A stretch of DNA of 64,000 nucleotides, from assembly GCA_041690135.1 (NCBI GenBank), contig JAWLHY010000019.1, positions 32,001 through 96,000 on the forward strand, written 5' to 3'. Shown here one piece after another: positions 41,112 through 54,159 of this stretch; the first letter of the stretch is position 1; each line of letters begins with the position of its first letter. The translations under genes and the position numbers were made by a program. This DNA is from Armatimonadota bacterium. GTDB lineage: Bacteria > Armatimonadota > SYMT01. The notes beneath the pieces were generated by a model, which worked only from the letters and a program-made list of their open reading frames with translations, was not told the DNA's origin and did not search any database.

Positions 41112-42122
41112 TCACGCGGAGGTTTCGGAAGGTTCGAACTGGGGTTGGAGGAGGATCCGCCCTTCCGTAAAGGCGAGGTAAAGGAGACCCACAATGATCC
41201 AGAGCACGTCCCGGCAACGACGCAGAACGGCGAGAGCCAGGGCATGTGGAGCGGCGACCCCGAGGATGGGGGCGAGATAGACGTAGCCGCCTTCCTGGGT
41301 GCCCACGTTGGCGGGGATCAGGAAGGTCGCCATGTTGACGCTGACGATCAGCGCCTCGAAAGCAAGTGCCTCCGAGACAGAAAGTGGAAAGCCGAGCACG
41401 TAGGCGCCCGCGAGCATTTCGAGAGCCCCTGCCGCCCAGCCGAGAAAGAAGAGGGCAAAGGACAGGAGCGATTCGCGGGGGTGGGCGTAGAAGTAGTCCG
41501 CGACCCGGCCCCACGTTTCCAGGACCCAGGCGCCGGGGGAGCGGCGTTTTGGCGCAACGGCTTCTTCGAGTCCGGTGGGGGGAGCAGTCCTACGGGTGCG
41601 ACGGAGGCGAAGGTCGAGAATGGCCGTCACGATGATCGCCGCCAGGATCGCTCCCGGGAATGCCGCAAACCCGAGAAAGAAGCCCTCCCGGCCCGGCACT
41701 TCCCGGATCGCCAGCACGGCGCCGAGGAAGATGAAGCAGACCTGGCCGAGCGTCATCAGCGTCTTGGAGACCGCGACGGAGGCGAAGGCGTCTTTCACGT
41801 TCGCCCCATCCCTGGCCAGCAAGTAGATTTTGAGGGGCTCTCCGCCCATGGAAGCGAGCGGCGTCACCTTGTTCGCCGCCTCGCCGGCACGTTGGACCCA
41901 GAAAAGCCGGGAAAATGGCACCGGCGCGTGGTCTTCGCCGAAAACGGCCCGCCAGCCCCAGGTGTCGAGGAGGTAGATGACTGACGTCACCGTGAGGTAA
42001 AGAAGGAACCCCCACCCCACTTGAGATAAGGACTCCCGCACAGTGCCGGCATGTTGGCTGAATAGAAACGCCGTGAGGGCGAGACCGCCCACCAGCAGAA
42101 TGAACCTAACGGCTTTCAGCAT
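41112..42122 (-). CDS. Lysylphosphatidylglycerol-synthase TM / UPF0104 (HpnL-like) flippase-type membrane protein
   Basis: AGEAANKVTPLASMGGEPLK and IPANVGTQEGG motifs; multiple TMs. Confidence 0.82.
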   Translation of the reverse strand: MLKAVRFILLVGGLALTAFLFSQHAGTVRESLSQVGWGFLLYLTVTSVIYLLDTWGWRAVFGEDHAPVPFSRLFWVQRAGEAANKVTPLASMGGEPLKIYLLARDGANVKDAFASVAVSKTLMTLGQVCFIFLGAVLAIREVPGREGFFLGFAAFPGAILAAIIVTAILDLRLRRTRRTAPPTGLEEAVAPKRRSPGAWVLETWGRVADYFYAHPRESLLSFALFFLGWAAGALEMLAGAYVLGFPLSVSEALAFEALIVSVNMATFLIPANVGTQEGGYVYLAPILGVAAPHALALAVLRRCRDVLWIIVGLLYLAFTEGRILLQPQFEPSETSA

Positions 42123-43389
42123 TGGCGGTCCGGAACATCGAGAGTTGGATGGCCGAGAAGACGATCCAGAAGACGTGTGAGCCGATCCCGGCCAGCCAGG
42201 CCAGCCATTCTAGACGGCCGATCAGCACCAGGGCCACCACGATCACCGAGAAGTCCCGCGAGGTCGCTTCGTTGATGACTTTCTCCGTGAGCGTATCCCG
42301 GGGGGTGGACTTTACCTGGTCCTCGCTGGAAAGGCGATTGGTGGCGGCCAGCGCGGACACCGATCCCGGTTGAAAGCGGCTTTGGAGCTTACCCAGGCCA
42401 AAAATGACCAGCACGCACATGACGACCCCGGTGGCGGCCAAAACACCCAGAGTGGTGGCCAGCGGCACTCCCAACTGCGTCGCAGCAGCCCGCGCGGCGG
42501 CCGCGAACACGGCCACCGTCACCACGTTATCCGCCCAGACGTCGAGCCAGCTCCCGAATTTGCTGAACTGATACTTGAGCCGCGCGATCTCGCCGTCGGA
42601 ACAATCGAGGGCGACCGAAAGCTGGAAGAGCACCGCGCCCACGACCGAGAGCGCATAATCACCCTGCCAGAACAGCCAGGCGGCGAGCATCCCCAGGGAG
42701 AAGTGAAGGCAGGTCACCTGGTTGGGGGTGATTGGCAAGTTAATGACCCGCCGAGTGAACCAGCGAGAAATGTGCCGGTTGAACACGCGGTCGATGTAAC
42801 CGTCCGCCACACAGGCCAGGTCCAGGTACATTCGCCGATCCGCGGCATCTACCGCTTCTTGGCTGTCGAGCCGGAGATAGGCCTCAGGAGAAGCGAGCAG
42901 TGGGGAGCTACTTCGAATGAGACGGCGCGCGGCGTCTTCCGGAGCACCTCCGGCGCCGAGCGCGACCTGCACTTCTCGACCGGGAACAACCGCCGGGCCG
43001 GCGCATGGATGGCCGGTAGCGTCGAGCGCCACGGCCCCCGCTGTCTGCCGCTGCGCTTCGAGAAGCCGTTTCAGAGCGTCTTTTGCCGCCATTACCTGGG
43101 GAGAGAGCAGCAGCACGCGGTCGTCATCATCGAAGCGAGGGAGGTCCTCGGGACGGCCAACGACGGTGAGCGGGACATGCAGTTCCTTCTCGCTCTGCGC
43201 CCAGTGCGCGGCGGCCTCCGGGCTCCCGGTCACCAGGGTTACGTGCTGGGCACCCAGGTGCCACGCCTGCAGGATGGCGCGCCGCACCAACGTGAGACCC
43301 GCGAGCCGGGTGTCCGGAGGGATAGGAGAGACCGCGCACCCCTCTGGACGGAAGGGGGCATCCGTTTCGAAAACGATGGCTCGGATCAC
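42106..43389 (-). CDS. CDP-alcohol phosphatidyltransferase with degenerate N-terminal NTP-transferase-like domain
   Basis: ITPNQVT and DCSDGEIARLKYQFSKFGSWLDVWAD signature; GTG start overlaps the upstream stop. Confidence 0.88.
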   Translation of the reverse strand: MIRAIVFETDAPFRPEGCAVSPIPPDTRLAGLTLVRRAILQAWHLGAQHVTLVTGSPEAAAHWAQSEKELHVPLTVVGRPEDLPRFDDDDRVLLLSPQVMAAKDALKRLLEAQRQTAGAVALDATGHPCAGPAVVPGREVQVALGAGGAPEDAARRLIRSSSPLLASPEAYLRLDSQEAVDAADRRMYLDLACVADGYIDRVFNRHISRWFTRRVINLPITPNQVTCLHFSLGMLAAWLFWQGDYALSVVGAVLFQLSVALDCSDGEIARLKYQFSKFGSWLDVWADNVVTVAVFAAAARAAATQLGVPLATTLGVLAATGVVMCVLVIFGLGKLQSRFQPGSVSALAATNRLSSEDQVKSTPRDTLTEKVINEATSRDFSVIVVALVLIGRLEWLAWLAGIGSHVFWIVFSAIQLSMFRTANAESR

Positions 43390-44093
43390 AGTTCCTTCAG
43401 CAACTCTCGCGCTCGTTCCACGTCTTCGGGAAAGTCGATCTCCAACCAGGGGAGGTCGTCCACCAGCTCGTAACCGATGTGGCACTCCCGCATCAACGCC
43501 GGATAGACCTCTTCGTGTTCGATGCCGTCCCGTCCCTGCTCCAATGTGCGGCCCAGGAGCTCACGCAGGGTGGAGGCCGCCTCGGCATTGAGTTTCAAGA
43601 AGCCGACCGATTCGCCGGTGGTATCGTAACCGGGCTGGGCGCCGCGGGCGATATCGAGTACCCGGCCGTCGCGTGCCATCAGCATCTGTGCTTCCCCGTC
43701 ATCGGCCGCCCTCGTGTCCATCAGAAAGCAGTTGGGATGCGGCGACCGGACCAGGCGCTCCAGCATTCGCACCGGAAACAACACATCGGCATCCATGATG
43801 AGAACGTCGGCATCCAGGGCCTCCCGCGCGCACCAGAGGGAGAGAATCGCCCCCTTCCGGTACTCCGGATTGTAGACGGTCTTTACTCCCGCTCGGCCCG
43901 CCACGGCCCGTTCGATCTGGTCTGCCAGGTGTCCGACCACGATCGTGACGTCGTGTACGCCGACTTCATGGAGCGCGTCCAGCATGCGGTCGAGCAGGGA
44001 GCGTCCGTCCAGATCCAACAGGCACTTGGGATGTTCGACGACGGCGCCGCTGAGTCGCCTGCCTCTCCCAGCGGCCAGGATAACGGCCTTCAT
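43386..44093 (-). CDS. LicC/PntC-like phosphocholine or phosphonate cytidylyltransferase
   Basis: ILAAGRGRRL, PKCLL, DADVLF, GESVGFLK, WLEIDFPED. Confidence 0.88.
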   Translation of the reverse strand: MKAVILAAGRGRRLSGAVVEHPKCLLDLDGRSLLDRMLDALHEVGVHDVTIVVGHLADQIERAVAGRAGVKTVYNPEYRKGAILSLWCAREALDADVLIMDADVLFPVRMLERLVRSPHPNCFLMDTRAADDGEAQMLMARDGRVLDIARGAQPGYDTTGESVGFLKLNAEAASTLRELLGRTLEQGRDGIEHEEVYPALMRECHIGYELVDDLPWLEIDFPEDVERARELLKEL

Positions 44094-44094
44094 G

Positions 44095-45057
44095 TTAGAA
44101 ATCGTCCCACCGGCCTAATACGTCGCCCGGCTCCTGTCCCCGTTCGTTCAGGTAGGTGCGGTACTTCTGGAGAGTATCGTACACGTCGCAGGTGATCAGC
44201 AGATTACTTGACCGCCCGGGGGCCGCGGACCAGAGCCCATCCGGGTTCCGGTTGGCCAGGAGCCACTGTACTCCCTGGGTGAACTTTTCTTCGTAACGGT
44301 GGTCGTTCATGACCAGACAGGCCAGGATCAGGGCGCGTGTCGAGTCGCAGGTATGGTCCACATCCCCACCGTCCCAGGATCCGTCCTGGTCCATCGCATT
44401 CGCCATCAGGTCGAGGCCCTTCCGGGCGGCCTCCGAGTCTCCCTGGTAGACCACGATCTTGGGGAGGATGTGGGCCGTCCAGGCAACCGGGGAAAGACGT
44501 TGCTCCTGCTTGAAGCGCGGGTCGTACCAACCGCCATCCTCTGCCTGCATGCCGCAAGCGAAAGCGATGCCGCGCTCCACTGCCGATCGCACCCGGTCGG
44601 ACTCGATCCCGTCGTGGCCGGCCAGCATCAGGGCACCGAGAGAGATGCTCGTAGAGTCGCTGCGTCCCCACAGCACGTCCAGCCAGCCACCACCCGGCTC
44701 CTGCTGCGCCAGGAGATAGTTGACGGCCTTCTGTACCGCTGCGGTGATCGCCGGGTCCTGGAGTTGCCGGTTGAGCGTGACGAGATTGCGCGTGCAGAAC
44801 GCGGCCTCGCGGATGCCGCTCTTCTCATCGTTCGAGAACTCGCCCCAGCCGCCGTCCTCATGCTGGATCCGGACGAGCCGCTCGCAGGCGTCTCGGGCCA
44901 TCTCCGCCGCCTTCTCCTGGGCAAGTACGCGCAACACGTGGTTCGTGGTGTCGAGTGACAGCCGGTCCGCCGCCAGGTCCCATTCCGGTCGCCGCTGCTC
45001 CAGGACGGCCAGTCCCTCATGCATAAGATCGTCGATCTGTCCCACCGTAATCGGCAC
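44095..45057 (-). CDS. Prenyltransferase / squalene-oxidase repeat (alpha-alpha toroid) protein
   Basis: Five QW-like repeats: QHEDGGW, QEPGGGW, QAEDGGW, MDQDGSW, RNPDGLW. Confidence 0.78.
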   Translation of the reverse strand: MPITVGQIDDLMHEGLAVLEQRRPEWDLAADRLSLDTTNHVLRVLAQEKAAEMARDACERLVRIQHEDGGWGEFSNDEKSGIREAAFCTRNLVTLNRQLQDPAITAAVQKAVNYLLAQQEPGGGWLDVLWGRSDSTSISLGALMLAGHDGIESDRVRSAVERGIAFACGMQAEDGGWYDPRFKQEQRLSPVAWTAHILPKIVVYQGDSEAARKGLDLMANAMDQDGSWDGGDVDHTCDSTRALILACLVMNDHRYEEKFTQGVQWLLANRNPDGLWSAAPGRSSNLLITCDVYDTLQKYRTYLNERGQEPGDVLGRWDDF

Positions 45058-45060
45058 GGT

Positions 45061-46332
45061 CTAACTCCTTGTCGCGGGCTCGTCCCGCAGGTTCTTGCGT
45101 AACTCTTCGTGGATCGAACTGTTGGTGGCCAGCAGCGATTGGCCGTTTTCCCGGAGTGGGTACCCCTCAAAGTCCGTGAGCCGGCCCCCGGCCTGCTCGA
45201 GCACGAGCGCACCCGCGGCAAAATCCCATTTGCGCGTGGTATTCCGAACGAAGGCGTCGATGCGCCCGCAGGCCGTGTAGCAGAGCAGGCTGGCCGTCGA
45301 TCCCATCACCTTCACGCGCCCCTCGCATTCTCGGGCGACGCGCTTGAAGATTGCCAGGCCCTCTTCAAGCCGCTGGTGGCGATCGAAATAGCAGTTGACC
45401 ATCGCCTCGCGCACCGAAAGTACTTCCGACACGTGAATTTCCTCGCCGTTGAGCGTGGCGGGTTCTCCCTTCGCGGCCGCGAACAGTTCATCCAGGACGG
45501 GCAAGTATACCACGCCGATGGCCGGCTCGCCTTCCACCCACAGGGCGATGGAAACGGCGAAATAGGGCAGCCCGCGGGAGAAGTTGGTCGTCCCGTCCAG
45601 GGGGTCCACGATCCACTGACGCGGGGAGTTGTGTCCCGACTCCCCCGCCTCTTCAGACAGGATGTAGTCCTCGGGGTAGACCTCGCGCAGCCGTGAGAGG
45701 ATCTCCGCTTCCGCGGCCGGATCCGCATCCGTCAGCAGCGACCGGTCGCTCTTCTCCCGGACACTGAAGGAAGAACCACGGTACTCCAACAGGATCTCCC
45801 CCGCCGCCCGCGCCGCGGCAATCGCCGTGTCCAGCTCCGCTGCGAACCTGGGAGCCACAGATTTCACAGATTGGGAAGGATTAGAAGGGGACGGGAGCGG
45901 TGGAGGGCCAGTGCGGCGGAGTTTGGGCGCTTCCCAGCCAGGATTGTGTTTGTACCGCTGTTGTTGCAATGAGGCGGTTCCGAAGTTGAGGAGCAGCCCG
46001 ATTTCGCAACCTGTCGCTTTCAGGTAGTTCAGGATCTGGGCCTTCTCGGTGCCGGAGAGATGTTCCTGCGCCTTGAGCTCTACCAGGACGGTCCCGAAGC
46101 AGATCAGGTCGGCACGGTACTTCTTCTTCAGGCGCCGCCCCTTGTAGTGCAGTGCCAACGGCACTTCGTGCTGCACGGGAATACCTCGGCGCCGGAGTTC
46201 TATCAGGAGGGCTTCAAGATACACGGCTTCGAGAAATCCCGGTCCTAGCTGCCGATGCACCTCCATCGCAGCCCCGATGATGGCGTAAGTCCGTGGATCG
46301 TCCTTCTCCGAGTTGCTTTGCTGGGTTCTCAA
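45061..46332 (-). CDS. GxxExxY nuclease-like domain fused in frame to inositol monophosphatase
   Basis: LGPGFLEAVY, RADLIC, VELKA, GLLLNFG (GxxExxY); ILSEEA, WIVDPLDGTTNF, WDFAAG (IMPase). Confidence 0.9.
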   Translation of the reverse strand: MRTQQSNSEKDDPRTYAIIGAAMEVHRQLGPGFLEAVYLEALLIELRRRGIPVQHEVPLALHYKGRRLKKKYRADLICFGTVLVELKAQEHLSGTEKAQILNYLKATGCEIGLLLNFGTASLQQQRYKHNPGWEAPKLRRTGPPPLPSPSNPSQSVKSVAPRFAAELDTAIAAARAAGEILLEYRGSSFSVREKSDRSLLTDADPAAEAEILSRLREVYPEDYILSEEAGESGHNSPRQWIVDPLDGTTNFSRGLPYFAVSIALWVEGEPAIGVVYLPVLDELFAAAKGEPATLNGEEIHVSEVLSVREAMVNCYFDRHQRLEEGLAIFKRVARECEGRVKVMGSTASLLCYTACGRIDAFVRNTTRKWDFAAGALVLEQAGGRLTDFEGYPLRENGQSLLATNSSIHEELRKNLRDEPATRS

Positions 46333-46374
46333 CTCCCTCTCCTTCCTTCCAAATCTGTGAAATCTGTGGCTCCC
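45850..46374 (-). mobile_element. Putative 525-bp GxxExxY cassette with 31-bp TIRs and ACCT direct repeats
   Basis: Left GGGAGCCACAGATTTCACAGATTGGGAAGGA (45850-45880) and right TCCTTCCAAATCTGTGAAATCTGTGGCTCCC (46344-46374) are 30/31 inverted; ACCT at 45846-45849 and 46375-46378. Confidence 0.65.
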
Positions 46375-46382
46375 ACCTACTC

Positions 46383-47438
46383 TCAGTCTTGTAGAAGAAG
46401 GTCTAAGGCGGTGGAGCGGATATGGGAGTAGCGGTTGGGGTGGAGGTAGGGCGCGGGGCTGCTGCCGTAGAGGCGGTAGAGCATGGTGAGGGCGGCGTAG
46501 CGGCGGAAGCGGAGGGACCAGCGGGTATCCAGGGCGGGGGCGGTTTCGCGGTAGCCGGCTTCGATGGCGGACGCGGCCGCCTGGGCGGAAGGACGGAGGT
46601 TCGGGTCGTTCTCTCCCATCAACAGGTAGTGGCCGGCCAGGAAGCCGGGATCGTAGGCAGGGTCGGAGACGGCAGCGCCCAACTCGAAATCGAGCAGGAA
46701 TACCTCCCCCTCCGGTCCGACGCGCACGTTCTTCGGCGCCGCATCCAGGTGGGAGATCATCCCCTCCCGCTCCGCGGCGCGCGCCTCGTCATAGAGGGAA
46801 TGGGTCACCTGTTCCGCATCGGCCGGAAGCTCGGCACGCTGGAGAACCCCGGTTGTCCGCATGCGCAAGAAGCGGAGCCAGTTGGCGTGGTCCTGTTCGC
46901 GGGTTGGCCAGAGTGTTTCTTCCCCCAGGCGCACGGTATGCACGATGCCGAACAAGCCGGCCAGACGGTAGGCCGCCTGGGGATCGCACTGGTTCTTCTG
47001 GAGTGCCGATTGGAGGGAGGTGGTGCGTTCCCCGATCCGCAGCGTCCAGAGGATGTTGTTCCGTTCGTCATAATGGACGACCTGGGGAACCTTATGACGC
47101 ACGGGCTCCGGCAGGGCGGTACGGAGCGTCCGAAGTGCCCGGGCCTCGACCTGGATCCGGGCTGGGGACACATCGGAGAGGTCCTTGCCCAGGCGCTCAT
47201 GTTCTTTGACCCGCGAGAGCGCTTGTTTGAGAAACACGGATCCGGCAGGTACGTCTACCCGATAGACGTAGTTCATGACGCCCACGTCGAGATAGGTGAT
47301 TTCAGCCTCGTCCCACTCTCTCGGTAGTCCCGAATGGATTGCAACCCTTGTCTCGCGCAAATAGTTGCGGACTGCCTCCGGTCCCTCCGCCAGCGAGTGA
47401 ACGGGAACCCAGTCTGGACGGTCTATCCCGGCGTGCAT
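46383..47438 (-). CDS. APH/choline/methylthioribose-kinase-like phosphotransferase
   Basis: GVMNYVYRV, FLKQAL, SHLDAAPKN (Brenner-like), LLDFE. Confidence 0.8.
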   Translation of the reverse strand: MHAGIDRPDWVPVHSLAEGPEAVRNYLRETRVAIHSGLPREWDEAEITYLDVGVMNYVYRVDVPAGSVFLKQALSRVKEHERLGKDLSDVSPARIQVEARALRTLRTALPEPVRHKVPQVVHYDERNNILWTLRIGERTTSLQSALQKNQCDPQAAYRLAGLFGIVHTVRLGEETLWPTREQDHANWLRFLRMRTTGVLQRAELPADAEQVTHSLYDEARAAEREGMISHLDAAPKNVRVGPEGEVFLLDFELGAAVSDPAYDPGFLAGHYLLMGENDPNLRPSAQAAASAIEAGYRETAPALDTRWSLRFRRYAALTMLYRLYGSSPAPYLHPNRYSHIRSTALDLLLQD

Positions 47439-47451
47439 CGTGGGGTCCGCC

Positions 47452-48597
47452 TCAGGCGATCATCTGCAGAACTTCGCGCAGGCCTGCAGCATCCAGGTCC
47501 CGGAGGTTGTGGCCGGCACGGTCCGGCGTGTAGCCGTCGCGCACGCACAACTCGATGCCCTCGGCATCGATACCCAGCTCCGACAGGGACGTTTTTAGCC
47601 CGACGCGCTGCAGGAGAACCTGGATCCGCCGGGCGCCGCTATCGATGCTGTTGCCGCCCGTGGCTCGAGCCAGGGCGGTCATCCTCTCCAGCGAGGCTTC
47701 CGCGTTGAAGCGCAACAGTGCCGGCAGGGTAATGCTACTCGCCTGTCCGTGGACCACGCCGAAATGCAGGGTCATCGGGTAGGATAGCGAGTGCGCGGCG
47801 GCCGTTTTCGTGTTGCTGAATGCGAGGCCGGCGAGCAGCTGGGCGAAAAGCATCCGGTTGCGATGCCCCAGGTTGTCCGGATGGTTCACCGCGAGCGGGA
47901 GCGCCTCGAAGATGCGCCGCACCGCTTCCAGAGCGTAGGTGTCCGAAATCGGGTTGGCGTTCTTATTCCAGTAGGCTTCCATCGCGTGCGAAAGCGCGTC
48001 CATGCCCGTGGTGGCGGTGAAGGCCGTCGGAAGCGTTAATGTGAGGCGAGCATCGAGCACGGCATGGGTCGGGTACATTCCCATGCCCTCCATCGAGAAC
48101 TTCTTCTTCGTTTCCAGGTTCCAGAGGGTGGCCCAGCGGGTAACCTCACTGCCGGTCCCGGCGGTGGTGGGCACCATCACGGTGGGGAGACTGGGGGTCG
48201 AGGTGGAACGCTGCTTATCCAGGATCGGCAGCACTTCCCCGCCGTTGGGCAGGGTGGCGGCAACCACCTTGGCGGTATCGAGTGCGCTGCCGCCGCCGAT
48301 CCCCAGGATGATCTCAGCACCATGCTCGCGCGCGAAATCCACCGCTTCCTGTGCCTGCGTCACCTCCGGGTTGGGCCGGACCCCGTCGTAAACGGAAAGC
48401 TCGCGGTCACCCACCAGGCTCGCGACCTGATCCCGGATCCCCAACTCCTGCAAGATGGCCCCGTCGGTGACGAGGGTAACCCGCCGCCCCGGAAGCTCGG
48501 CGAGGATTTCCGGAAGCTTCTCCAGGCTGCCGGGACCAAAGGTGACCTTGACGGGATTCCAGAAACGCGTGGCGAGGTTTTCAGGAGAGATGCTCAT
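47452..48597 (-). CDS. Iron-containing alcohol dehydrogenase, probable phosphonoacetaldehyde reductase (PhpC/FomC-like)
   Basis: GGGSALDTAK, PTTAGTGSEVT, DALSHAMEAYW, AAHSLSYPMT, HGQA; located in a pepM-ppd operon. Confidence 0.85.
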   Translation of the reverse strand: MSISPENLATRFWNPVKVTFGPGSLEKLPEILAELPGRRVTLVTDGAILQELGIRDQVASLVGDRELSVYDGVRPNPEVTQAQEAVDFAREHGAEIILGIGGGSALDTAKVVAATLPNGGEVLPILDKQRSTSTPSLPTVMVPTTAGTGSEVTRWATLWNLETKKKFSMEGMGMYPTHAVLDARLTLTLPTAFTATTGMDALSHAMEAYWNKNANPISDTYALEAVRRIFEALPLAVNHPDNLGHRNRMLFAQLLAGLAFSNTKTAAAHSLSYPMTLHFGVVHGQASSITLPALLRFNAEASLERMTALARATGGNSIDSGARRIQVLLQRVGLKTSLSELGIDAEGIELCVRDGYTPDRAGHNLRDLDAAGLREVLQMIA

Positions 48598-49697
48598 GAC
48601 TTGATTTCCAGGAACGACTCGCGGACGGCGTTCACGACGCCGCGGAGGTCATCGGCGGTGAGGGTCCCCAGGTTGGCGATGCGAAACGCCCAGGTTTTGA
48701 GGTCCCCCTGGCCGGCATAGATCACGTAGCCGCGCTCTTTCATGGCATCGTGCAGCGCGTCGTACGACACACCTTCCGGAAGTGGGAAGGTCGTGAGGGT
48801 GTTGGACCGCCACTCGGGGGCCACGATCGGCTCCAGTCCCAGTTCGGCCATTCCCTCGCGGAGCGCCTGGGCCGCCTCCCGGTAGCGGTGGAACCGGTTC
48901 TCCAGCCCCTCCTCGTGGGTTTCGAGGATTGCCTGGCGCAGGGCGAAGAAGACCTGGATCGCCGGGGTGAAAGGCGTGTTATCGGCCTCTTCCGCTTTCC
49001 ACTGGTTATACAGGTTGAGGTAGACCGACCGGGCCGGAAGGGAAGCCAACCCCTCCAGGGCTGTACGCCGCGCAACCACGAACGAAAGCCCGGCCATGCC
49101 CTGAAGACACTTGTTGGAACTCGAGATCAGGTAGTCGATCCCCAGCTCCTTCACATCAAGTGGCTCCCCCGCGAATGAGCTCATCGCATCCACGATTAAC
49201 GACCGTCCGTGTTTGCGGCAAACGGCCGCGAGCGCTTCCACGGGATTGAGGAGCCCGGTGGTGGTCTCGTGATGCACCACGGCCAGGTGGCTGAGCGAGG
49301 GGTCCTCGGTAAAGGCTCGATCCACATCTTCCGGCCGGGGCGCTTCCGTCCAGTGGTAGTGGAGCACGTGGTGCTCGATGCCGTGGGCCGCGGCCATCTG
49401 GCGGATGCGGTCGCCATAGACGCCGTTGTCGATGACCAGCAGCTTGCGGTCCCGCGGGACGACGGAGCAGACCGTGGCCTCCACGGCCGCCGTTCCGGAA
49501 CCGGAGAAGACGACGGTGGACCACTCGTTGCCTCCGCCGGCCAGACCGGCGATTTCGTCGCGCACCCACCGCATCACGGCAAAGAACTCCGGCTCCCGGT
49601 GACAAAGATCCGGCGTGACCATCGCGTTCCGCACCGTGGGGGTGGTGCAGGCGGGACCGGGGTTCAGGAGGATGTACTCCTTTAACGGCTCACTCAA
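48594..49697 (-). CDS. phnW: 2-aminoethylphosphonate aminotransferase (AepZ/PhnW)
   Basis: LLNPGP, GSGTAAVEA, HHETTTGLLNP, DAMSSF, SSNKCLQG, PFTPAIQV, VIYAGQ. Confidence 0.88.
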   Translation of the reverse strand: MSEPLKEYILLNPGPACTTPTVRNAMVTPDLCHREPEFFAVMRWVRDEIAGLAGGGNEWSTVVFSGSGTAAVEATVCSVVPRDRKLLVIDNGVYGDRIRQMAAAHGIEHHVLHYHWTEAPRPEDVDRAFTEDPSLSHLAVVHHETTTGLLNPVEALAAVCRKHGRSLIVDAMSSFAGEPLDVKELGIDYLISSSNKCLQGMAGLSFVVARRTALEGLASLPARSVYLNLYNQWKAEEADNTPFTPAIQVFFALRQAILETHEEGLENRFHRYREAAQALREGMAELGLEPIVAPEWRSNTLTTFPLPEGVSYDALHDAMKERGYVIYAGQGDLKTWAFRIANLGTLTADDLRGVVNAVRESFLEIKS

Positions 49698-50272
49698 GGT
49701 CGGTCTCCGGTAGCGTGAACGGCGGCGGAGAAACGGTCGCGGATCTCTTCGGGGGTATGCGTGACGCGCCCGGCCTTGAACGGCCCCGTCTCAACCTCAA
49801 CCTCCGCCAGGATGAAGGTCGGCCCTTCGGTCTCCAGGCATTCGCGGTATGCGGCGGCCGTCTCTTCCGGCGTCCGGGTGCGCACCGCCCGGGTGTAGCC
49901 GGCCGCCTCCGCGATCTTCTCCAGGGCTATGGACTGGCTCACCGCCGGCTGGTTGCCGGTGCTGGCGTAGACCCCGTTATCGAAGACGATGTGGATCAGG
50001 TTCTTCGGCCGGGTGGAGGCGATCATTGCCGTGGAGCCGAGGTTCATCAGCAGGTTGCCGTCGCCGTCGTAGATCACCACGCGGCGGTCGGGGCGAGAGA
50101 GCGCGACCCCCAGGCCGATCGACGAGGCGAGGCCCATCGAACCAATCATATAGAAGTTGCCGGGCCGGTCGTCCACGGTGAACGAGCGCCGGGAGATGTG
50201 CCCGTTGGCGTGGACTACGACCGCATCCCCCAGCAGCGGCTGCAACGCGCGGATGGCTTCTTCCAGAGTCAT
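49694..50272 (-). CDS. Phosphonopyruvate decarboxylase, beta (TPP-binding) subunit
   Basis: NFYMIGSMG, DGDGNLLMNLG, DNGVYASTGNQP; ATG at 50272 overlaps the alpha stop. Confidence 0.85.
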   Translation of the reverse strand: MTLEEAIRALQPLLGDAVVVHANGHISRRSFTVDDRPGNFYMIGSMGLASSIGLGVALSRPDRRVVIYDGDGNLLMNLGSTAMIASTRPKNLIHIVFDNGVYASTGNQPAVSQSIALEKIAEAAGYTRAVRTRTPEETAAAYRECLETEGPTFILAEVEVETGPFKAGRVTHTPEEIRDRFSAAVHATGDRP

Positions 50273-50790
50273 TTCGTCACCCCCGCACGCAGCAGCAGCG
50301 CCGCGGGAAGACTGTTCTCCCGCTGGTATTCCGTCGCCCACCGGAGGTCGTCCAGCAGGGTCTCCGGTTCCGGTGTCCGGAAAGGAACTCCAATCGTGTC
50401 GAGGAGCTTTCCGGAGATTTCCCCCATGATGATGTGCTCCGGGGCATCCTTCCCGAGATAGCCTCGCCATGTGATGAGCAGGAGGCACGGGGTCTTGTAC
50501 ATCAGGGTCATCGAAGTGAGGGCGTTGACGCAGACGCCGAGTCCGGAGTTCTGCATGACGACGACGGGACGACGTCCCGCCATCATCGCCCCGCAGGCCA
50601 GTCCCACGGCGGCATCCTCGCGGGTTTCCGCGTAGTAGTGCACCTCCGGGTCGCGCTCGAGCTCAGCAATGAGACCACTGACGAGGGAGCAGGGTACTCC
50701 GGTGAAAAAGTCGTACCCTTGCTCCTTCAGCGCCGCCGCGAACGCGGTGGGCGAAACGGGGTCGGTTTCGAAGACGGATCCACTTGCCAC
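50269..50790 (-). CDS. Phosphonopyruvate decarboxylase, alpha subunit
   Basis: FFTGVPCSL, REDAAVG, MQNSGLG, WRG...DAPEH. Confidence 0.85.
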   Translation of the reverse strand: MASGSVFETDPVSPTAFAAALKEQGYDFFTGVPCSLVSGLIAELERDPEVHYYAETREDAAVGLACGAMMAGRRPVVVMQNSGLGVCVNALTSMTLMYKTPCLLLITWRGYLGKDAPEHIIMGEISGKLLDTIGVPFRTPEPETLLDDLRWATEYQRENSLPAALLLRAGVTK

Positions 50791-50799
50791 GGGGATTTC

Positions 50800-52485
50800 C
50801 TACTTCTGCTCCGCCCAGGCGCGCCGGTAATCTTCGAAGGTATCGATCTCGGCCCAGCCCTTGTAGATGTCGACGGCTTGCACGGCATGGCCGCGGTCGA
50901 TCAGTTCCTGGAGCATATCCGTCAGCTTGGCGGCCCGCAGCCGGGGCGCTTCCTGGAAGGGAGCTTCCGGATCTCCGGCGCAAGCTTCGGCATAGGCTTC
51001 CCGCAGTGCGGCACAGCCCTCCGGCGAGAGCATCATCATGCCGATGAACTCCCCGTCGCATTGCTCGCGCGGCAGGTCGTGGCCGATGCGAAGTACACGG
51101 TTCCCCTCCTCGCTGGGCAGATAACGATAGCCCACACTGGGAGGCCGCTCCGTTGCCACCAGGTCTTCGTACGGCCGCTGCCGGCCGTTGCCACTCGCCC
51201 GGTGCTCCATCCAGGCGCGGTCCACCACCACGTTGACATCACCTTCCGCCTTCAGGAGCTTTTCCAGGATGCCCTGGTCGAAGAGCACGTCCGAGTAAAG
51301 GACGACCACCCGGCCCTTGAGCTCCGGCTCGGCACGGAAGAGGGAATAGAGCTCGCTGGTCTGCTCGTACTCGTCGTTGTCGTAGTAGCGGGGCGTCGTT
51401 AGGGTGAAGGCTTCCTTCTTGTAGCCGCGCACCACCACGACGTCCTTGATGTTGCAGGCGTTGAGAAGATCGATCTGGCGCTCCAGGATCGACTTACCCT
51501 TGATGTCGAGCATCGCCTTGGGGCGCTCTTCGATCAGCGGGAGTAGTTCGGGCTCGAAACCGGCTGCCACGATCACGGCCGTCACCTTGCCGCCGTCCGC
51601 GGGCAAGAACTGCTTCTCCTGGTGGTTCATCTCCTCCACGCCGACCAGCCGGTAGACTTCCTCCAGTGGTACCAGCGAGGGCTCCACGTCCGCGATCCGG
51701 CGGGTGCGGTGGAGCTCGCCGAGGGTTTGCTGCATCGCTTTGATCGCGGCGCGCAGGCCGTGGTTGGCGAAGATCACGATCTTGAAGCCGGCCGCGTGGC
51801 AATCATCCGCGCTGGCTGTGGGGAAGATCGTCGGCACCACCACCAGCGGCGTGTCCCGGTTCCACTGCTGGGCCGCGTGGGCCAACTCGTCGAGGGTCTT
51901 CGACTTGGAATGGATCAGGACGGCATCCGCGCCGGCATCCGCGTACGCGTGGGCGCGCTTGAGTGCCTCTGCTTCCCCCCACCCCGCAATCAGCGCCTCG
52001 GTGCGGGCGATGATAAACGTATCGGGGTCACGCTGGGCGGCCTTGGCGGCGCGGATCTTGCCCGCGTGTTCCTCCGGAGAAACCAGTTCCCGCCGGGAGC
52101 CCGAGTAGAAGCTGCAGCGCTTGGGGAAGATGTTGTCCTCTAGACAGATCCCCGCGATCCCGGCATCTTCGTATTCCCGGATGGTGCGGACTACGTTCAC
52201 CGCGTTTCCGAACCCGCTGTCGCAGTCCGCGATGACCGGGATGTCGATCGCGTGTGCGATCCCTCGGGCTACTTCCAGGTTTTCGGAGAAGGTGAGGATG
52301 TTGGCGTCGGGAACGCCCTGGGATGCGGAGATTTCAAACCCGCTGGCCCAGACGGCATCGAAACCCGCCTCTTCCACGAGACGCGCACTGAGGGGATTGT
52401 GGGCGCCCGCCACGAGGAGCGGCCCGGACCTTCCCAGGGCCAGTCGCAGCTTGCGTGCGGGTGAATCAGTGGATCGACCAGTCAT
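50800..52485 (-). CDS. pepM: Phosphoenolpyruvate mutase fused to a C-terminal nucleotidyltransferase
   Basis: GAHNPLSA, WASGF, ADCDSGFGNAVNV, EDNIFPKRCSF, ARTEALIAG, ADAVLIHSK, IFANH; C-domain RPKAMLDI, YSDVLF, GEFIGM, WAEIDT. Confidence 0.85.
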   Translation of the reverse strand: MTGRSTDSPARKLRLALGRSGPLLVAGAHNPLSARLVEEAGFDAVWASGFEISASQGVPDANILTFSENLEVARGIAHAIDIPVIADCDSGFGNAVNVVRTIREYEDAGIAGICLEDNIFPKRCSFYSGSRRELVSPEEHAGKIRAAKAAQRDPDTFIIARTEALIAGWGEAEALKRAHAYADAGADAVLIHSKSKTLDELAHAAQQWNRDTPLVVVPTIFPTASADDCHAAGFKIVIFANHGLRAAIKAMQQTLGELHRTRRIADVEPSLVPLEEVYRLVGVEEMNHQEKQFLPADGGKVTAVIVAAGFEPELLPLIEERPKAMLDIKGKSILERQIDLLNACNIKDVVVVRGYKKEAFTLTTPRYYDNDEYEQTSELYSLFRAEPELKGRVVVLYSDVLFDQGILEKLLKAEGDVNVVVDRAWMEHRASGNGRQRPYEDLVATERPPSVGYRYLPSEEGNRVLRIGHDLPREQCDGEFIGMMMLSPEGCAALREAYAEACAGDPEAPFQEAPRLRAAKLTDMLQELIDRGHAVQAVDIYKGWAEIDTFEDYRRAWAEQK

Positions 52486-52644: not shown

Positions 52645-52672
52645 CCGTCCCTACCTCTAGAGGTAGGGACGG
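52645..52672. terminator. Perfect 28-bp palindrome just downstream of the propeller-thioredoxin gene
   Basis: CCGTCCCTACCTCTAGAGGTAGGGACGG. Confidence 0.6.
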
Positions 52673-52680
52673 AAGTGGCT

Positions 52681-54159
52681 CTAGCCTCCCCCAAAGGGGA
52701 GAAGGAGCTTGGTGAGGGTGGCGCGGACCTCGTCGGGGGTGGTGGTGCCGACGGCCTGCACGATGCCCTTCTTATTCACGACTACATTGACGGGGACGCC
52801 GTTCAAGCCGAGTTGGTTGATATATTCCGCCTTGCTGTCGAGCAAAACGGGGCCCTCGATGTTATGGATCTTGCAGAAGTGGAGGGCCTCGTCACGGGCG
52901 TTGACGTGTTCCCACACATTCACCATCACGATTTCGAGCCCGTAGTTCTTCGCGCGCCGGCGGACTTCTTCGAGTAGCGGAGCCTCCGCATTACATGGCC
53001 CTCACCAACTGGCGAAGAAGTTAAGGATATAGTTCTTCCCACGCCACTCGCCAGAGGTTCGCTCCCGGCCATCCACCATATCCGGCAGGGCGAAGTCCGG
53101 CAGCGGTTTGCCCACCAGGGGGTGCCGCTCGTCCTTGGGCAGAGTGCGAGGCTTTCCCGTGAGCCGGTCCTGGAAGATACTCACGGTACTGGTCGCCGCA
53201 TCCGAGACATAGACCGTGTTGGTGGTCGGATCGACCGCGAGATCTCCGGGCGCTTGCCCGACCCGCACGCGTCCCCACTCCCGACCGGACTCCCGATCGA
53301 TCACGCTAACGCGGCCGGTTCCGCGATTGGCGGCGTAGATGCGATCTCCGGACCCGCTGAGTGCCATCCCTACGGGGGCACGCTCGACGGGAACTGTGCG
53401 GACGACCTTCCGCTTCTCCAGATCGATTACCGAGACGGTGCTGACTAGCGAGTTGGCGACGTATGCCAGCCCGCGCTCGGAGTCGATGGCGATCTTGCAG
53501 GGGGCGTAATCCACGGCGATCTTATCGATGGCCTGGTTCGACTCACCGTCGATCACCGTTACGGAGGCATCGCCGAAGTTGACACAGTAAACGCGGTCGC
53601 GCTTCGGGTCGGCGGCGATACTGCCTGCGGCGAGCGCGGCGGGCACGGTCGCGATGACCTCCAGCGAGTCGATGTCGATCACGCTGACCGTGCCGTCGGC
53701 GGTGTTGCCGACGTACAGCTTCCGGCGCTCCTCATAGATTCCGGCTCCGGCAGGGTAATGCTGAACGGGTATCTGCCGGATGACTTCCAGGCGTTCCGTA
53801 TCCACGGCTGAAACCATGTCGGAACGAGCGTCCGTAGTGAAGGCGCGGCGGGTTCGTGGGTCATAGGCCAGCCCGATCGGCTCGCGGGCTACCGGTATCT
53901 CGCGAATGACTTCGCGGGTATCCAGATGGAAGACGACGAGGCTGTTGCTGCGAGCGCAGGCGACAAACCCGTGGCGTCGTTCGGGGTCGAGTGCCAGGCC
54001 CTCCGGGCCCAGGCCAACGGGCACAGACCCGAGCGAGGGAAACGTTTCGTCCAATGATCTCTCCGGTTCGAGGGAATAGATCCGGCCAGGGAGCGCGTGA
54101 CGTAGGGCCAACGAACGAGGGTCTGCCCGCACGCCGACACGGCTCTCCTTATGTAACAT
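52681..54159 (-). CDS. YVTN beta-propeller fused to a TlpA/ResA-like thioredoxin domain with UxxC (probable selenoprotein; UGA at 53002-53004)
   Basis: Repeated (L/V)Y(V/A)xN...TVSVID blades; the frame continues through TGA as NFFASW-U-GPCNAEAPLL...GVPVNVVVNKKG. Confidence 0.85.

Follow-up and report, generated by a model that had tools for sequence, protein, structure and literature searches.

Here, we examined a predicted phosphonate gene cluster in a 64,000-nucleotide stretch of DNA from an Armatimonadota bacterium (contig JAWLHY010000019.1, positions 32,001 to 96,000; hereafter, the window). The cluster consists of 11 open reading frames (ORFs) on the minus strand, at 41112-52485, and is modular: a core, g01-g04, g09, and g10, with g11 as an optional addition (genes are numbered in the direction of transcription), is combined with an inserted block, g05-g08, that encodes an iron alcohol dehydrogenase (Fe-ADH), a kinase, an inositol-monophosphatase-family phosphatase (IMPase), and a toroid protein. 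With moderate confidence, we interpret this arrangement as a pathway for a lipid bearing 2-aminoethylphosphonate (AEP) joined, in one operon, to a cassette that processes 2-hydroxyethylphosphonate (HEP). The novel parts are the inserted HEP cassette and the variant mutase encoded by g01, whereas the core is a variant of a cluster type that had been predicted but not characterized.

Operon structure and modularity

The initial annotation had described an eleven-gene, closely spaced or overlapping minus-strand operon, and this description stands. All 11 ORFs are present, and 10 of them match the families named there in Pfam, the exception being the kinase, g06; throughout, families were assigned from Pfam and NCBIfam profile scores, each read against the cut-off of the respective model. 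Comparison with homologues and inspection of codons moved the start of g03 to the ATG at 50272, which overlaps the stop codon of g02 (ATGA), and that of g10 to the GTG at 43389, which overlaps the stop codon of g09 (GTGA). After three start corrections, the intergenic gaps from g01 to g11 are 9, -4, -4, -4, 13, 50, 3, 1, -4, and -17 nt, with overlaps of the ATGA/GTGA type, and thus indicate one translationally coupled operon. The genes that flank it encode DUF1559/N_methyl proteins (Pfam), a gene content suggestive of Planctomycetota. A promoter and terminator scan, uninformative for this phylum, returned zero promoter-like sites and one terminator-like site, outside the operon.

Searches with the 11 window proteins (tblastn and blastp) showed that the gene order is kept on five metagenome contigs, as far as each of them reaches. 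All 11 genes are found in L011 and 10 in L016, where the contig stops inside g10; seven are present in L014 (Fe-ADH through the HpnL-like g11), six in L013 (Fe-ADH through the CDP-alcohol transferase), and another six in L012 (the decarboxylase alpha subunit, PpdA, through IMPase). Such recurrence of gene order is well beyond chance. The best-conserved proteins within this clade are the AEP aminotransferase AepZ, the phosphoenolpyruvate (PEP) mutase-like PepM, and the toroid, with 75-86% identity, and the least conserved are the kinase, g10, and g11, with 42-55%.

The boundary between core and cassette is apparent from a genome of the same family, G021, in which a fusion of PepM to a nucleotidyltransferase (NTase), 78% identical to g01, is followed by PpdA, PpdB, AepZ, a g09-type NTase, and a g10-type transferase. 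Beyond the transferase, nothing related follows; genes for Fe-ADH, the kinase, IMPase, the toroid, and g11 were not found in this cluster. Thus, AepZ, the NTase, and the transferase belong to a self-sufficient core into which g05-g08 are inserted as a block. In G048, the PepM-NTase fusion, both decarboxylase subunits, AepZ, and Fe-ADH are followed by an Fe-ADH fragment and unrelated genes, and a Planctomycetota metagenome-assembled genome (L002) keeps exactly the Fe-ADH/kinase/IMPase/toroid block, at 38-56% identity, before its contig ends. The kinase was found in 2 genomes of a phylum sample of 401, its own genome included. No description of the kinase/toroid cassette was found in the literature on kinases in pepM clusters or on CMP-AEP transferases, a search that covered articles but not the supplements of the inventories.

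The closest known cluster type is the ‘Burkholderiales_CDP-OH’ group of Li and Horsman (2022), which corresponds to the Group 1 phosphonolipids of Yu et al. 2013 (PMC8942020). As outlined in that survey, the seven-gene core of Group 1 comprises Ppm, Ppd, an AEP transaminase (AEPT), an alpha-ketoglutarate oxygenase, two PntCs, one of them fused to Ppm, and two phospholipid-synthesis genes, and the product is given there as a prediction, no phosphonolipid from this group being presented as characterized (PMC8942020). The window shares with it the fusion of Ppm to a PF12804 domain, Ppd, AEPT, a stand-alone PntC-type NTase, and a phospholipid-synthesis gene, here the CDP-alcohol transferase, such that g09 and g10 (PF01066) fit the second, stand-alone PntC and one of the two lipid genes of Group 1, with g11 as a candidate for the other. 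By contrast, neither the 11 operon ORFs nor the window ORFs of at least 120 aa yielded an alpha-ketoglutarate/Fe(II) oxygenase, and the window differs further in the EDN..KRCS lid of its mutase, which the motif filter of the Group 1 paper would exclude, and in the inserted Fe-ADH/kinase/IMPase/toroid cassette. No characterized cluster that matches the operon gene for gene emerged, the closest type being itself uncharacterized. The novelty lies in the kinase cassette and the variant mutase; the core matches a type already predicted, which the initial annotation had not noticed.

Proposed activation and transfer of aminoethylphosphonate

For the core, we propose a route in which the substrates beyond phosphonoacetaldehyde and AEP, as well as the acceptor, are predictions. 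The protein encoded by g01 (50800..52485), a PEP-mutase-like domain (residues ~1-295) fused to an NTP_transf_3-like domain (residues ~300-561), would form phosphonopyruvate, which a split thiamine pyrophosphate (TPP)-dependent decarboxylase would pull on to phosphonoacetaldehyde; its alpha-like subunit with the TPP N-terminal domain is encoded by g02 (50269..50790; PF02776) and its beta-like subunit by g03 (49694..50272; PF02775). The AepZ/PhnW-type aminotransferase g04 (48594..49697) would aminate phosphonoacetaldehyde to AEP, g09 would convert AEP to CMP-AEP, and g10 would transfer the aminoethylphosphonyl group to an alcohol. As the acceptor, we slightly favor a membrane lipid that offers a polyol head group over a polyol phosphate in solution; the lipid could then be moved across the membrane by the MprF/HpnL-like g11.

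The profile scores of the enzymes around the branch point are of unequal strength. Phosphonopyruvate and sulfopyruvate decarboxylase models tie, both below their cut-offs, for g02 (TIGR03297, 123 bits; sulfopyruvate decarboxylase alpha, 127 bits) as well as for g03 (TIGR03297, 176 bits; TIGR03846, 177 bits). The aminotransferase g04 scores above the equivalog cut-off of TIGR03301 (407.3 against 360.8 bits), and the best family of the Fe-ADH, g05, is TIGR03405 (332.4 bits, below the cut-off of 423.7), with the next family at 216 bits. The families thus agree with the initial annotation in that the operon holds both an AEP and an HEP branch, followed by an NTase, a CDP-alcohol transferase, and a flippase-like protein.

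Activation of AEP is best assigned to g09 (43386..44093; PF12804, 70.5 bits), a LicC/PntC/IPCT-like cytidylyltransferase and the only canonical-looking NTase of the operon, with the motifs AAGRGRRL, DAD, and EID. In a low-identity alignment, g09 displays the PF12804 domain, the loop, and the acidic amine site of PntC, with an Arg in AAGRGRRL replacing the Thr/Ser of the loop GxG(T/S)R. In PntC, this loop is the pyrophosphate site, and E104 and E196 contact the amine of AEP (PMC6697681). HMMER alignments place D101 and E193 of g09 at these two positions, which are occupied by Asp in LicC and by Met and Pro in IPCT. Like the characterized PntCs (Tde1415 and Ari1348; Rice et al. 2019, PMC6697681), g09 is thus a PF12804 protein with NTase motifs and aligned acidic residues, but the similarity is low, and LicC and IPCT score equal or better (best matches in the PDB: LicC 1jyk, 51 bits; IPCT 2xme, 40 bits; PntC 6pd1, 38 bits).

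Alignment of 14 NTase sequences yielded three groups. The first consists of g09 and its clade orthologues, with AAG(V/R)G(K/R)RL, MDADV, and IEHEEVYP. The second, found beside the kinase in HEP-only loci, is 23-30% identical to g09, carries YGDV and PSPSYLF, lacks acidic residues at the amine-site positions, and finds its best NCBIfam matches among sugar-1-phosphate NTases. The third comprises the PepM-fused domains, which have AAGFEPEL or similar instead of GxG(T/S)R: AAGFEPEL is the reading in g01, the domains of L011, L016, and G021 share this change, and the loop is also absent from PepM-fused domains with a canonical lid, in L004 and L019. The g09-type NTase occurs together with AepZ in all 4 assessable loci (the window, L011, L016, and G021) and the second group in none of 5. 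Given these motifs and residues, and this pattern of co-occurrence, we assign the cytidylylation of AEP to g09 and regard the fused domain of g01 as probably degenerate or re-purposed, so that the two cytidylyltransferases counted in the initial annotation come down to one of canonical appearance. The characterized PntCs are a PntC-aminotransferase fusion and a monomeric protein, neither of which is described as a PepM fusion in the account of these enzymes (PMC6697681). Two further fusions tie the second NTase group to the pathway, namely, an NTase-HAD phosphatase of 470 aa (L019:8466-9878) and an NTase-phosphonopyruvate decarboxylase of 830 aa (L003:10948-13440).

The transferase g10 (42106..43389) joins an N-terminal cytosolic domain to a CDP-alcohol phosphotransferase domain, the architecture of AF2299 and DIPPS. 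The CDP-alcohol phosphotransferase signature, D-x2-DG-x2-AR-x8-G-x3-D-x3-D, is complete (it reads DCSDGEIARLKYQFSKFGSWLDVWAD), and D262, D265, G266, A269, R270, G279, D283, and D287 are invariant in 20 sequences. The profile of g10 matches AF2299 (4o6m, 5e-27) and IPCT/DIPPS (4mnd, 2.6e-21) far better than it does phosphatidylinositol-phosphate synthase or cholinephosphotransferase. Its N-terminal ~190 residues show a faint similarity to NTases (hhalign probability, 14.5%), with a short match at the same place as in the N-domain of AF2299, and nothing meaningful was found for them in Pfam at E-values up to 1. Hydrophobic segments are confined to residues ~215-420, apparently a membrane domain the size of six transmembrane (TM) helices and without room for additional ones. 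Six-TM CDP-alcohol phosphotransferases use soluble acceptors, whereas the enzymes that use diacylglycerol have 3 or 4 more helices (PMC4634129). The extent of the hydrophobic region thus weighs against plain diacylglycerol as the acceptor. A polyol phosphate in solution would fit, as would a lipid that inserts a polyol head group into the cavity; for the latter, CDP-alcohol-type cardiolipin synthases would be a precedent. The genome encodes inositol-1-phosphate synthase and, on another contig, a true squalene-hopene cyclase (SHC; 793.7 bits), so that both kinds of acceptor are available. The last gene, g11 (41112..42122; PF03706, 120.4 bits), encodes an LPG_synthase_TM/HpnL-like polytopic membrane protein with flippase-like features and was found in L011 and L014. 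It scores below the HpnL cut-off (TIGR03476, 170.7 against 195.65 bits), and zero hopanoid genes are present in the window.

A soluble product resembling di-myo-inositol phosphate (DIP) is a possible, albeit unlikely, alternative to the lipid. In such a scheme, g09 would make CMP-AEP or a CDP-polyol, g10 would join this to an alcohol phosphate in solution (inositol-1-phosphate or glycerol phosphate, for example), IMPase would remove the phosphate that is left to yield a soluble aminoethylphosphonyl-polyol, and g11 would export the product or be unrelated. The bifunctional IPCT/DIPPS model NF041135 is indeed the best NCBIfam match of both g09 (80.2 bits) and g10 (79.8 bits), but both scores are far under the 580-bit cut-off, and at both amine-contacting positions, g09 matches PntC and LicC rather than IPCT. 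The closest solved structures, AF2299 and IPCT/DIPPS, both bear a cytidylyltransferase-like N-domain and do not process lipids, as reported for the Archaeoglobus fulgidus proteins (Clarke et al. 2015, PMC4634129); the six-TM size of g10 fits them, and the stand-alone NTase of the window mirrors the IPCT half. In g10, however, the N-domain is degenerate, and a CMP-phosphonate, not CDP-glycerol or CDP-inositol, is presumed to be the donor. The presence of IMPase in the operon, and of inositol-1-phosphate synthase elsewhere in the genome, would suit a DIP-like product, but the minimal G021 cluster has no phosphatase and IMPase travels with Fe-ADH, kinase, and toroid, not with g09 and g10. Finally, g11 seems dispensable, since 2 of the 5 assessable loci gave no g11 match beyond g10 (L013, over its last 1.7 kb, and G021), yet it overlaps g10 by 17 nt where present. 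The transfer of activated phosphonates to lipids and glycans is uncharacterized, and the six-gene G021 unit, which combines an AEP pathway with a single canonical NTase and a single AF2299-type transferase, makes it directly testable.

The kinase-centered cassette

In the cassette, all of whose chemistry is predicted, the PhpC-like Fe-ADH g05 (47452..48597), its first gene, would reduce phosphonoacetaldehyde to HEP, and g06 (46383..47438) would phosphorylate an anionic substrate derived from HEP on one of its hydroxyls. The leading candidate, if short of probable, is HEP itself, and the ribose of CMP-HEP is a distinctly weaker one. The toroid g08 (44095..45057) could then act on the phosphorylated intermediate, and the IMPase g07b (~45061..45867) could remove the phosphate or recycle a by-product.

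The kinase has 351 aa and no Pfam match of its own, most of 50 homologues bearing PF01636. Its motifs HLDAAPKN (HxDxxxxN) and DFE are invariant, as are many Arg and Lys residues. An AF2 model (pLDDT, 91.2) places g06 among the APH-fold small-molecule kinases of the MtnK/PsiK/LxmK subgroup, with the same fold over its full length: in VIA, the Z score is 30.6 for MtnK (2pul_A; root-mean-square deviation (rmsd), 2.8 over 308 residues), 28.7 for PsiK, and 25.4 for LxmK, well above NahK (19.9) and a choline/ethanolamine-kinase-family protein (18.3). Identity to the three nearest kinases is, however, 14-20%, and the context of g06 is phosphonate synthesis rather than methionine salvage; with 29 bits for the 5-methylthioribose kinase model TIGR01767 against a cut-off of 275, the Z score of 30.6 speaks of shape, not function.

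The kinase served as bait because of its position in the middle of the operon. Whereas a search of species-genome contigs with one protein alone gave zero close relatives, an alignment of 21 homologues recovered 7 loci in species genomes and 15 metagenome loci, the window not counted. With three loci shorter than 2.1 kb and L015, a duplicate of L001, set aside and L017 merged with L018, 17 informative loci are left, of which 13 contain PepM, Ppd, or Fe-ADH (the others are L001, L006, L020, and L021). An archaeal locus (L003) encodes a cytidylyltransferase-PepM fusion, the kinase, the NTase-Ppd fusion, Fe-ADH, and B12 radical-SAM genes; one from Deltaproteobacteria (L004) has PepM-NTase, both Ppd subunits, Fe-ADH, kinase, NTase, and HAD; and one from Methanosarcinales (L005) combines a cytidylyltransferase-PepM fusion, Ppd, Fe-ADH, NTase, HAD, kinase, toroid, and glycan genes, a content similar to that of the metagenome loci L017/18 and L019, the latter with its NTase-HAD fusion. 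A Woesebacteria locus (L007) and a metagenome locus (L022) carry a different dehydrogenase, a PF01467 cytidylyltransferase, NUDIX, the kinase, and Ppd. AepZ has zero matches in these seven loci, all outside the window clade. Thus, what constantly accompanies the kinase is an enzyme that reduces phosphonoacetaldehyde, together with a cytidylyltransferase and a hydrolase, any of which can be exchanged for an unrelated family, and the kinase-centered module is a conserved lead to HEP chemistry in archaea, Deltaproteobacteria, candidate-phyla bacteria, and the window clade. In the early steps of fosfomycin synthesis, a cytidylyltransferase-PepM fusion, Ppd, and Fe-ADH likewise lead to HEP, and on to CMP-HEP (Fom1/Fom2/FomC; PMC6697681). 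Fom1-type PF01467-PepM fusions occur in the kinase loci L003, L005, and L022, whereas in the window the fused domain is C-terminal and PF12804-like, a Fom3-type radical-SAM enzyme is lacking, and there is an AEP branch.

Two kinase homologues of ~35% identity lie outside a phosphonate context (L020:5601-8238 and L021:9914-12384), beside a HemL/GntE-like class-III aminotransferase, an M19 dipeptidase, and a pyridoxal phosphate-dependent enzyme of Cys/Met metabolism, and may represent an amino-alcohol kinase branch of the family. In a cluster of the HEP type, a homologue of the phosphonoacetaldehyde hydrolase PhnX (L018:1286-2080; 130 bits, below the cut-off of 220) lies on the opposite strand between Ppd and Fe-ADH.

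The ORF that follows the kinase combines two domains. Its first part, g07a (45868..46332), is a GxxExxY/PD-(D/E)XK_3 domain (PF13366, 138 bits; TIGR04256, 142.8 bits) with a strong GGAGG-like ribosome-binding site before a TTG start, and it is in frame with IMPase, no stop codon lying between them. This insertion is absent from the relatives, whose IMPase starts at query residues ~141-191; g07b may have a start of its own, GTG at 45867 or 45858. In L012, a GxxExxY gene 58% identical to g07a is placed before PpdA, and this small family seems to move about within the operon. The score of g07b for PF00459 (216.6 bits against a cut-off of 27) identifies the IMPase family and says nothing of the substrate; its best NCBIfam matches, HisN (174 bits), SuhB (147 bits), and CysQ (142 bits), are all below their cut-offs.

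The toroid, a single domain of 320 aa with QW-type (squalene-cyclase) repeats (PF13243, 62.5 bits), is modeled as an (alpha/alpha)6 barrel (AF2; pLDDT, 93.5). In Foldseek and VIA comparisons, terpene-cyclase domains (SHC; Z, 28.0; rmsd, 2.5 over 271 residues) tie with AGE-type sugar epimerases (cellobiose 2-epimerases; Z, 27.9; rmsd, 2.8 over 304 residues), and the protein atlas offers only ‘terpene cyclase family’ clusters with no function assigned. Given the density of invariant His, Asp, Arg, Cys, and Lys residues among 37 invariant columns (including H40, R43, H196, D234, H235, D238, C290, D291, and K298) and the 75-80% identity across the clade, g08 is probably an enzyme; no hydrophobic or TM segment was found in it, which points to a cytosolic location. 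Class II terpene cyclases of the SHC type have two domains and rely on a DxDD proton-donor motif. The toroid g08 does not fit this type: it consists of one domain, reads GDVDHTCD in the equivalent stretch, and scores 53.6 bits for TIGR01507 against a cut-off of 431.1. A lanthipeptide-like logic of a kinase and a LanC-like toroid was also considered; LanC structures are not among the best 50 matches of g08, which is no proof against that logic.

The initial annotation took the kinase, phosphatase, and toroid as signs of an inositol or isoprenoid lipid, which none of our tests supports: together with Fe-ADH, the trio forms the cassette missing from G021, and the kinase tracks loci of the HEP type. 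An inositol/DIP role of the trio was accordingly kept as a rival only, the kinase following HEP clusters that lack inositol features. We also considered a sugar anomeric kinase, as in AmgK/MurU/MupP, because the second NTase group scores best for sugar-1-phosphate NTases, and ranked it low in view of the many invariant Arg and Lys residues of the kinase and the fusion of one such NTase to Ppd in L003.

A donor resembling 3′-phosphoadenosine 5′-phosphosulfate (PAPS) has been weighed as well and appears unlikely. Here, an NTase would form CMP-HEP, the kinase would phosphorylate the 3′-OH of the ribose, a transferase, possibly the toroid, would use 3′-phospho-CMP-HEP, and the IMPase (of the CysQ family), or HADs elsewhere, would recycle cytidine 3′,5′-bisphosphate. 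A 3′-phosphorylated cytidine donor is known from the O-methyl-phosphoramidate pathway of Campylobacter. Such a donor would explain why kinase, NTase, and hydrolase travel together, the hydrolase being HAD in L004, L005, L017/18, and L019, IMPase in the window clade and L002, and NUDIX in L007 and L022; YjjG-type pyrimidine nucleotidases are the second-best NCBIfam match of the HADs, the NUDIX protein resembles NudE, and the nearest structure to the kinase acts on a ribose hydroxyl. To our knowledge, however, no APH-fold kinase phosphorylates the ribose of a nucleotide; the CysQ score of IMPase is no better than those for HisN or SuhB, an NTase for HEP is not obvious in the window clade, and the toroid is missing from most kinase loci. 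In favor of such a donor, on the other side, APS-kinase-like genes flank ppm-ppd in Campylobacter clusters (PMC8942020).

Taken together, the parts of the operon admit a broader interpretation that we put forward tentatively: g05-g08, with a kinase common to bacteria and archaea, might constitute an undescribed HEP pathway that relies on transient O-phosphorylation, either on HEP or on the ribose of CMP-HEP, to assemble a novel phosphonate head group; the AF2299-type transferase might be the long-sought CMP-phosphonate transferase, with hopanepolyol or another polyol lipid as a possible acceptor; and the mutase might belong to a clade discarded by motif-based surveys.

Counter-evidence, the variant mutase, and the upstream gene

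Several observations weigh against the reading of the operon as an AEP-lipid core with an HEP-processing cassette. Apart from the non-lipid relatives and six-TM size of g10 and the loci lacking g11, already discussed, the residue equivalences between g09 and PntC come from low-identity HMMER alignments. Were HEP phosphate to be cytidylylated, the window clade would be without the second-group NTase that accompanies the kinase elsewhere, and the acidic pocket of g09, judging from its residues, would suit an anionic tail poorly. Outside the clade, the toroid was seen only in the kinase loci L002 and L005. Furthermore, the window and the clade contigs have flanking genes in common, which makes these contigs relatives rather than independent samples. 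The remaining points concern g01, which falls below the cut-off of the PEP mutase model (TIGR02320, 280.5 against 319.55 bits) and reads EDNIFPKRCS in the lid, where PepM has EDKxxxxxNS; the Asn replaced by Cys is one that we take to be important in the Mytilus enzyme.

The fold of the isocitrate-lyase superfamily is evident in g01 (PF13714, 209.8 bits against a cut-off of 31.5), with 37.4 bits for PF12804 in the fused domain. Apart from the K-to-N and N-to-C changes in the lid, g01 keeps the PepM columns D87, D89, E116, D117, K122, S125, R161, and H192 (8 sequences aligned, 5 of them canonical), which presumably have active-site roles, and the decarboxylase genes g02/g03 follow 9 nt downstream, as expected of PepM. 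The lid EDN..KRCS recurs in L011, L016, G021, and G048, whereas L004, L019, L005, L003, and L022 have the canonical EDK..NS. A pattern search of the representatives of the 150 nearest 50%-identity clusters found 90 canonical lids, 19 N..CS, 2 S..CS, and 21 others, the region not being found in 18. Across the 401-genome phylum sample, 59 genomes have a PepM-like gene at E-values up to 1e-40, and among the best 25 PEP-mutase-family loci, none is canonical, 7 have EDN..KRCS, and 18 have the PrpB-type EDQ..KRCG. The sole other PF13714 gene of the genome is likewise of the PrpB type (EDQ..KRCGH) and adjoins a methylcitrate-synthase-like gene, which makes g01 the only candidate source of phosphonopyruvate.

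It is very unlikely that g01 is not a mutase at all but a lyase- or hydrolase-type member of the superfamily with a Cys lid (KRCS), in an operon that handles sulfonates or externally supplied phosphonates: the missing EDKxxxxxNS motif, the tie between TIGR02320 and the phosphonopyruvate hydrolase model TIGR02321 (279.7 bits, also below its cut-off), the equal scores of the decarboxylase subunits for sulfopyruvate decarboxylase, and the match of Fe-ADH to sulfoacetaldehyde reductase (190 bits) would fit, but AepZ lies above its equivalog cut-off, the best family of Fe-ADH is the phosphonate-cluster alcohol dehydrogenase by 116 bits, the remaining invariant active-site columns are common to canonical PepMs, the variant lid occurs in 21 of the 150 clusters, in fused as well as free-standing proteins, and in two different phosphonate-like gene contexts, and a catabolic route would have no use for a decarboxylase.

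The EDKxxxxxNS motif is used to distinguish PepM from other members of the superfamily (PMC6697681), and both published inventories, as their methods are described, filter on it (PMC6697681; bioRxiv version of PMC8942020). The EDN..KRCS clade is thus invisible to them, and motif-filtered surveys may undercount phosphonate producers. Free-standing PepM-like genes with this lid are found in at least two Planctomycetota loci, L058 (G358:C76) and L059 (G087:C56). There, the operon encodes the PepM-like protein, a class I/II aminotransferase, a 420-aa protein of no assigned family, a gamma-glutamyltranspeptidase, and an MFS_3 exporter, without a decarboxylase. It resembles a PalB-type route and, by this analogy, may be a natural product cluster of the phosphonoalanine type.

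Upstream of the operon, the ORF list places the end of a gene at 53002, at a TGA within ILNFFASW-TGA-GPCNAE that occupies the first-Cys position of a TlpA/ResA-type thioredoxin. With this TGA read as selenocysteine, the gene spans 52681-54159 (minus strand), its frame running through 106 further thioredoxin-like residues to the TAG at 52681-52683. The upstream genes in L011 and G048 (L057) have the same in-frame TGA and a conserved downstream frame, and SelA is encoded in the genome (481 bits). The gene likely encodes a selenoprotein composed of a YncE/NHL beta-propeller and a UxxC thioredoxin. At 52647-52670, 11 nt past the true stop of this putative selenoprotein gene, a hairpin formed by a perfect 24-nt palindrome (10-bp stem, 4-nt loop) looks like a terminator between the gene and the pepM operon.

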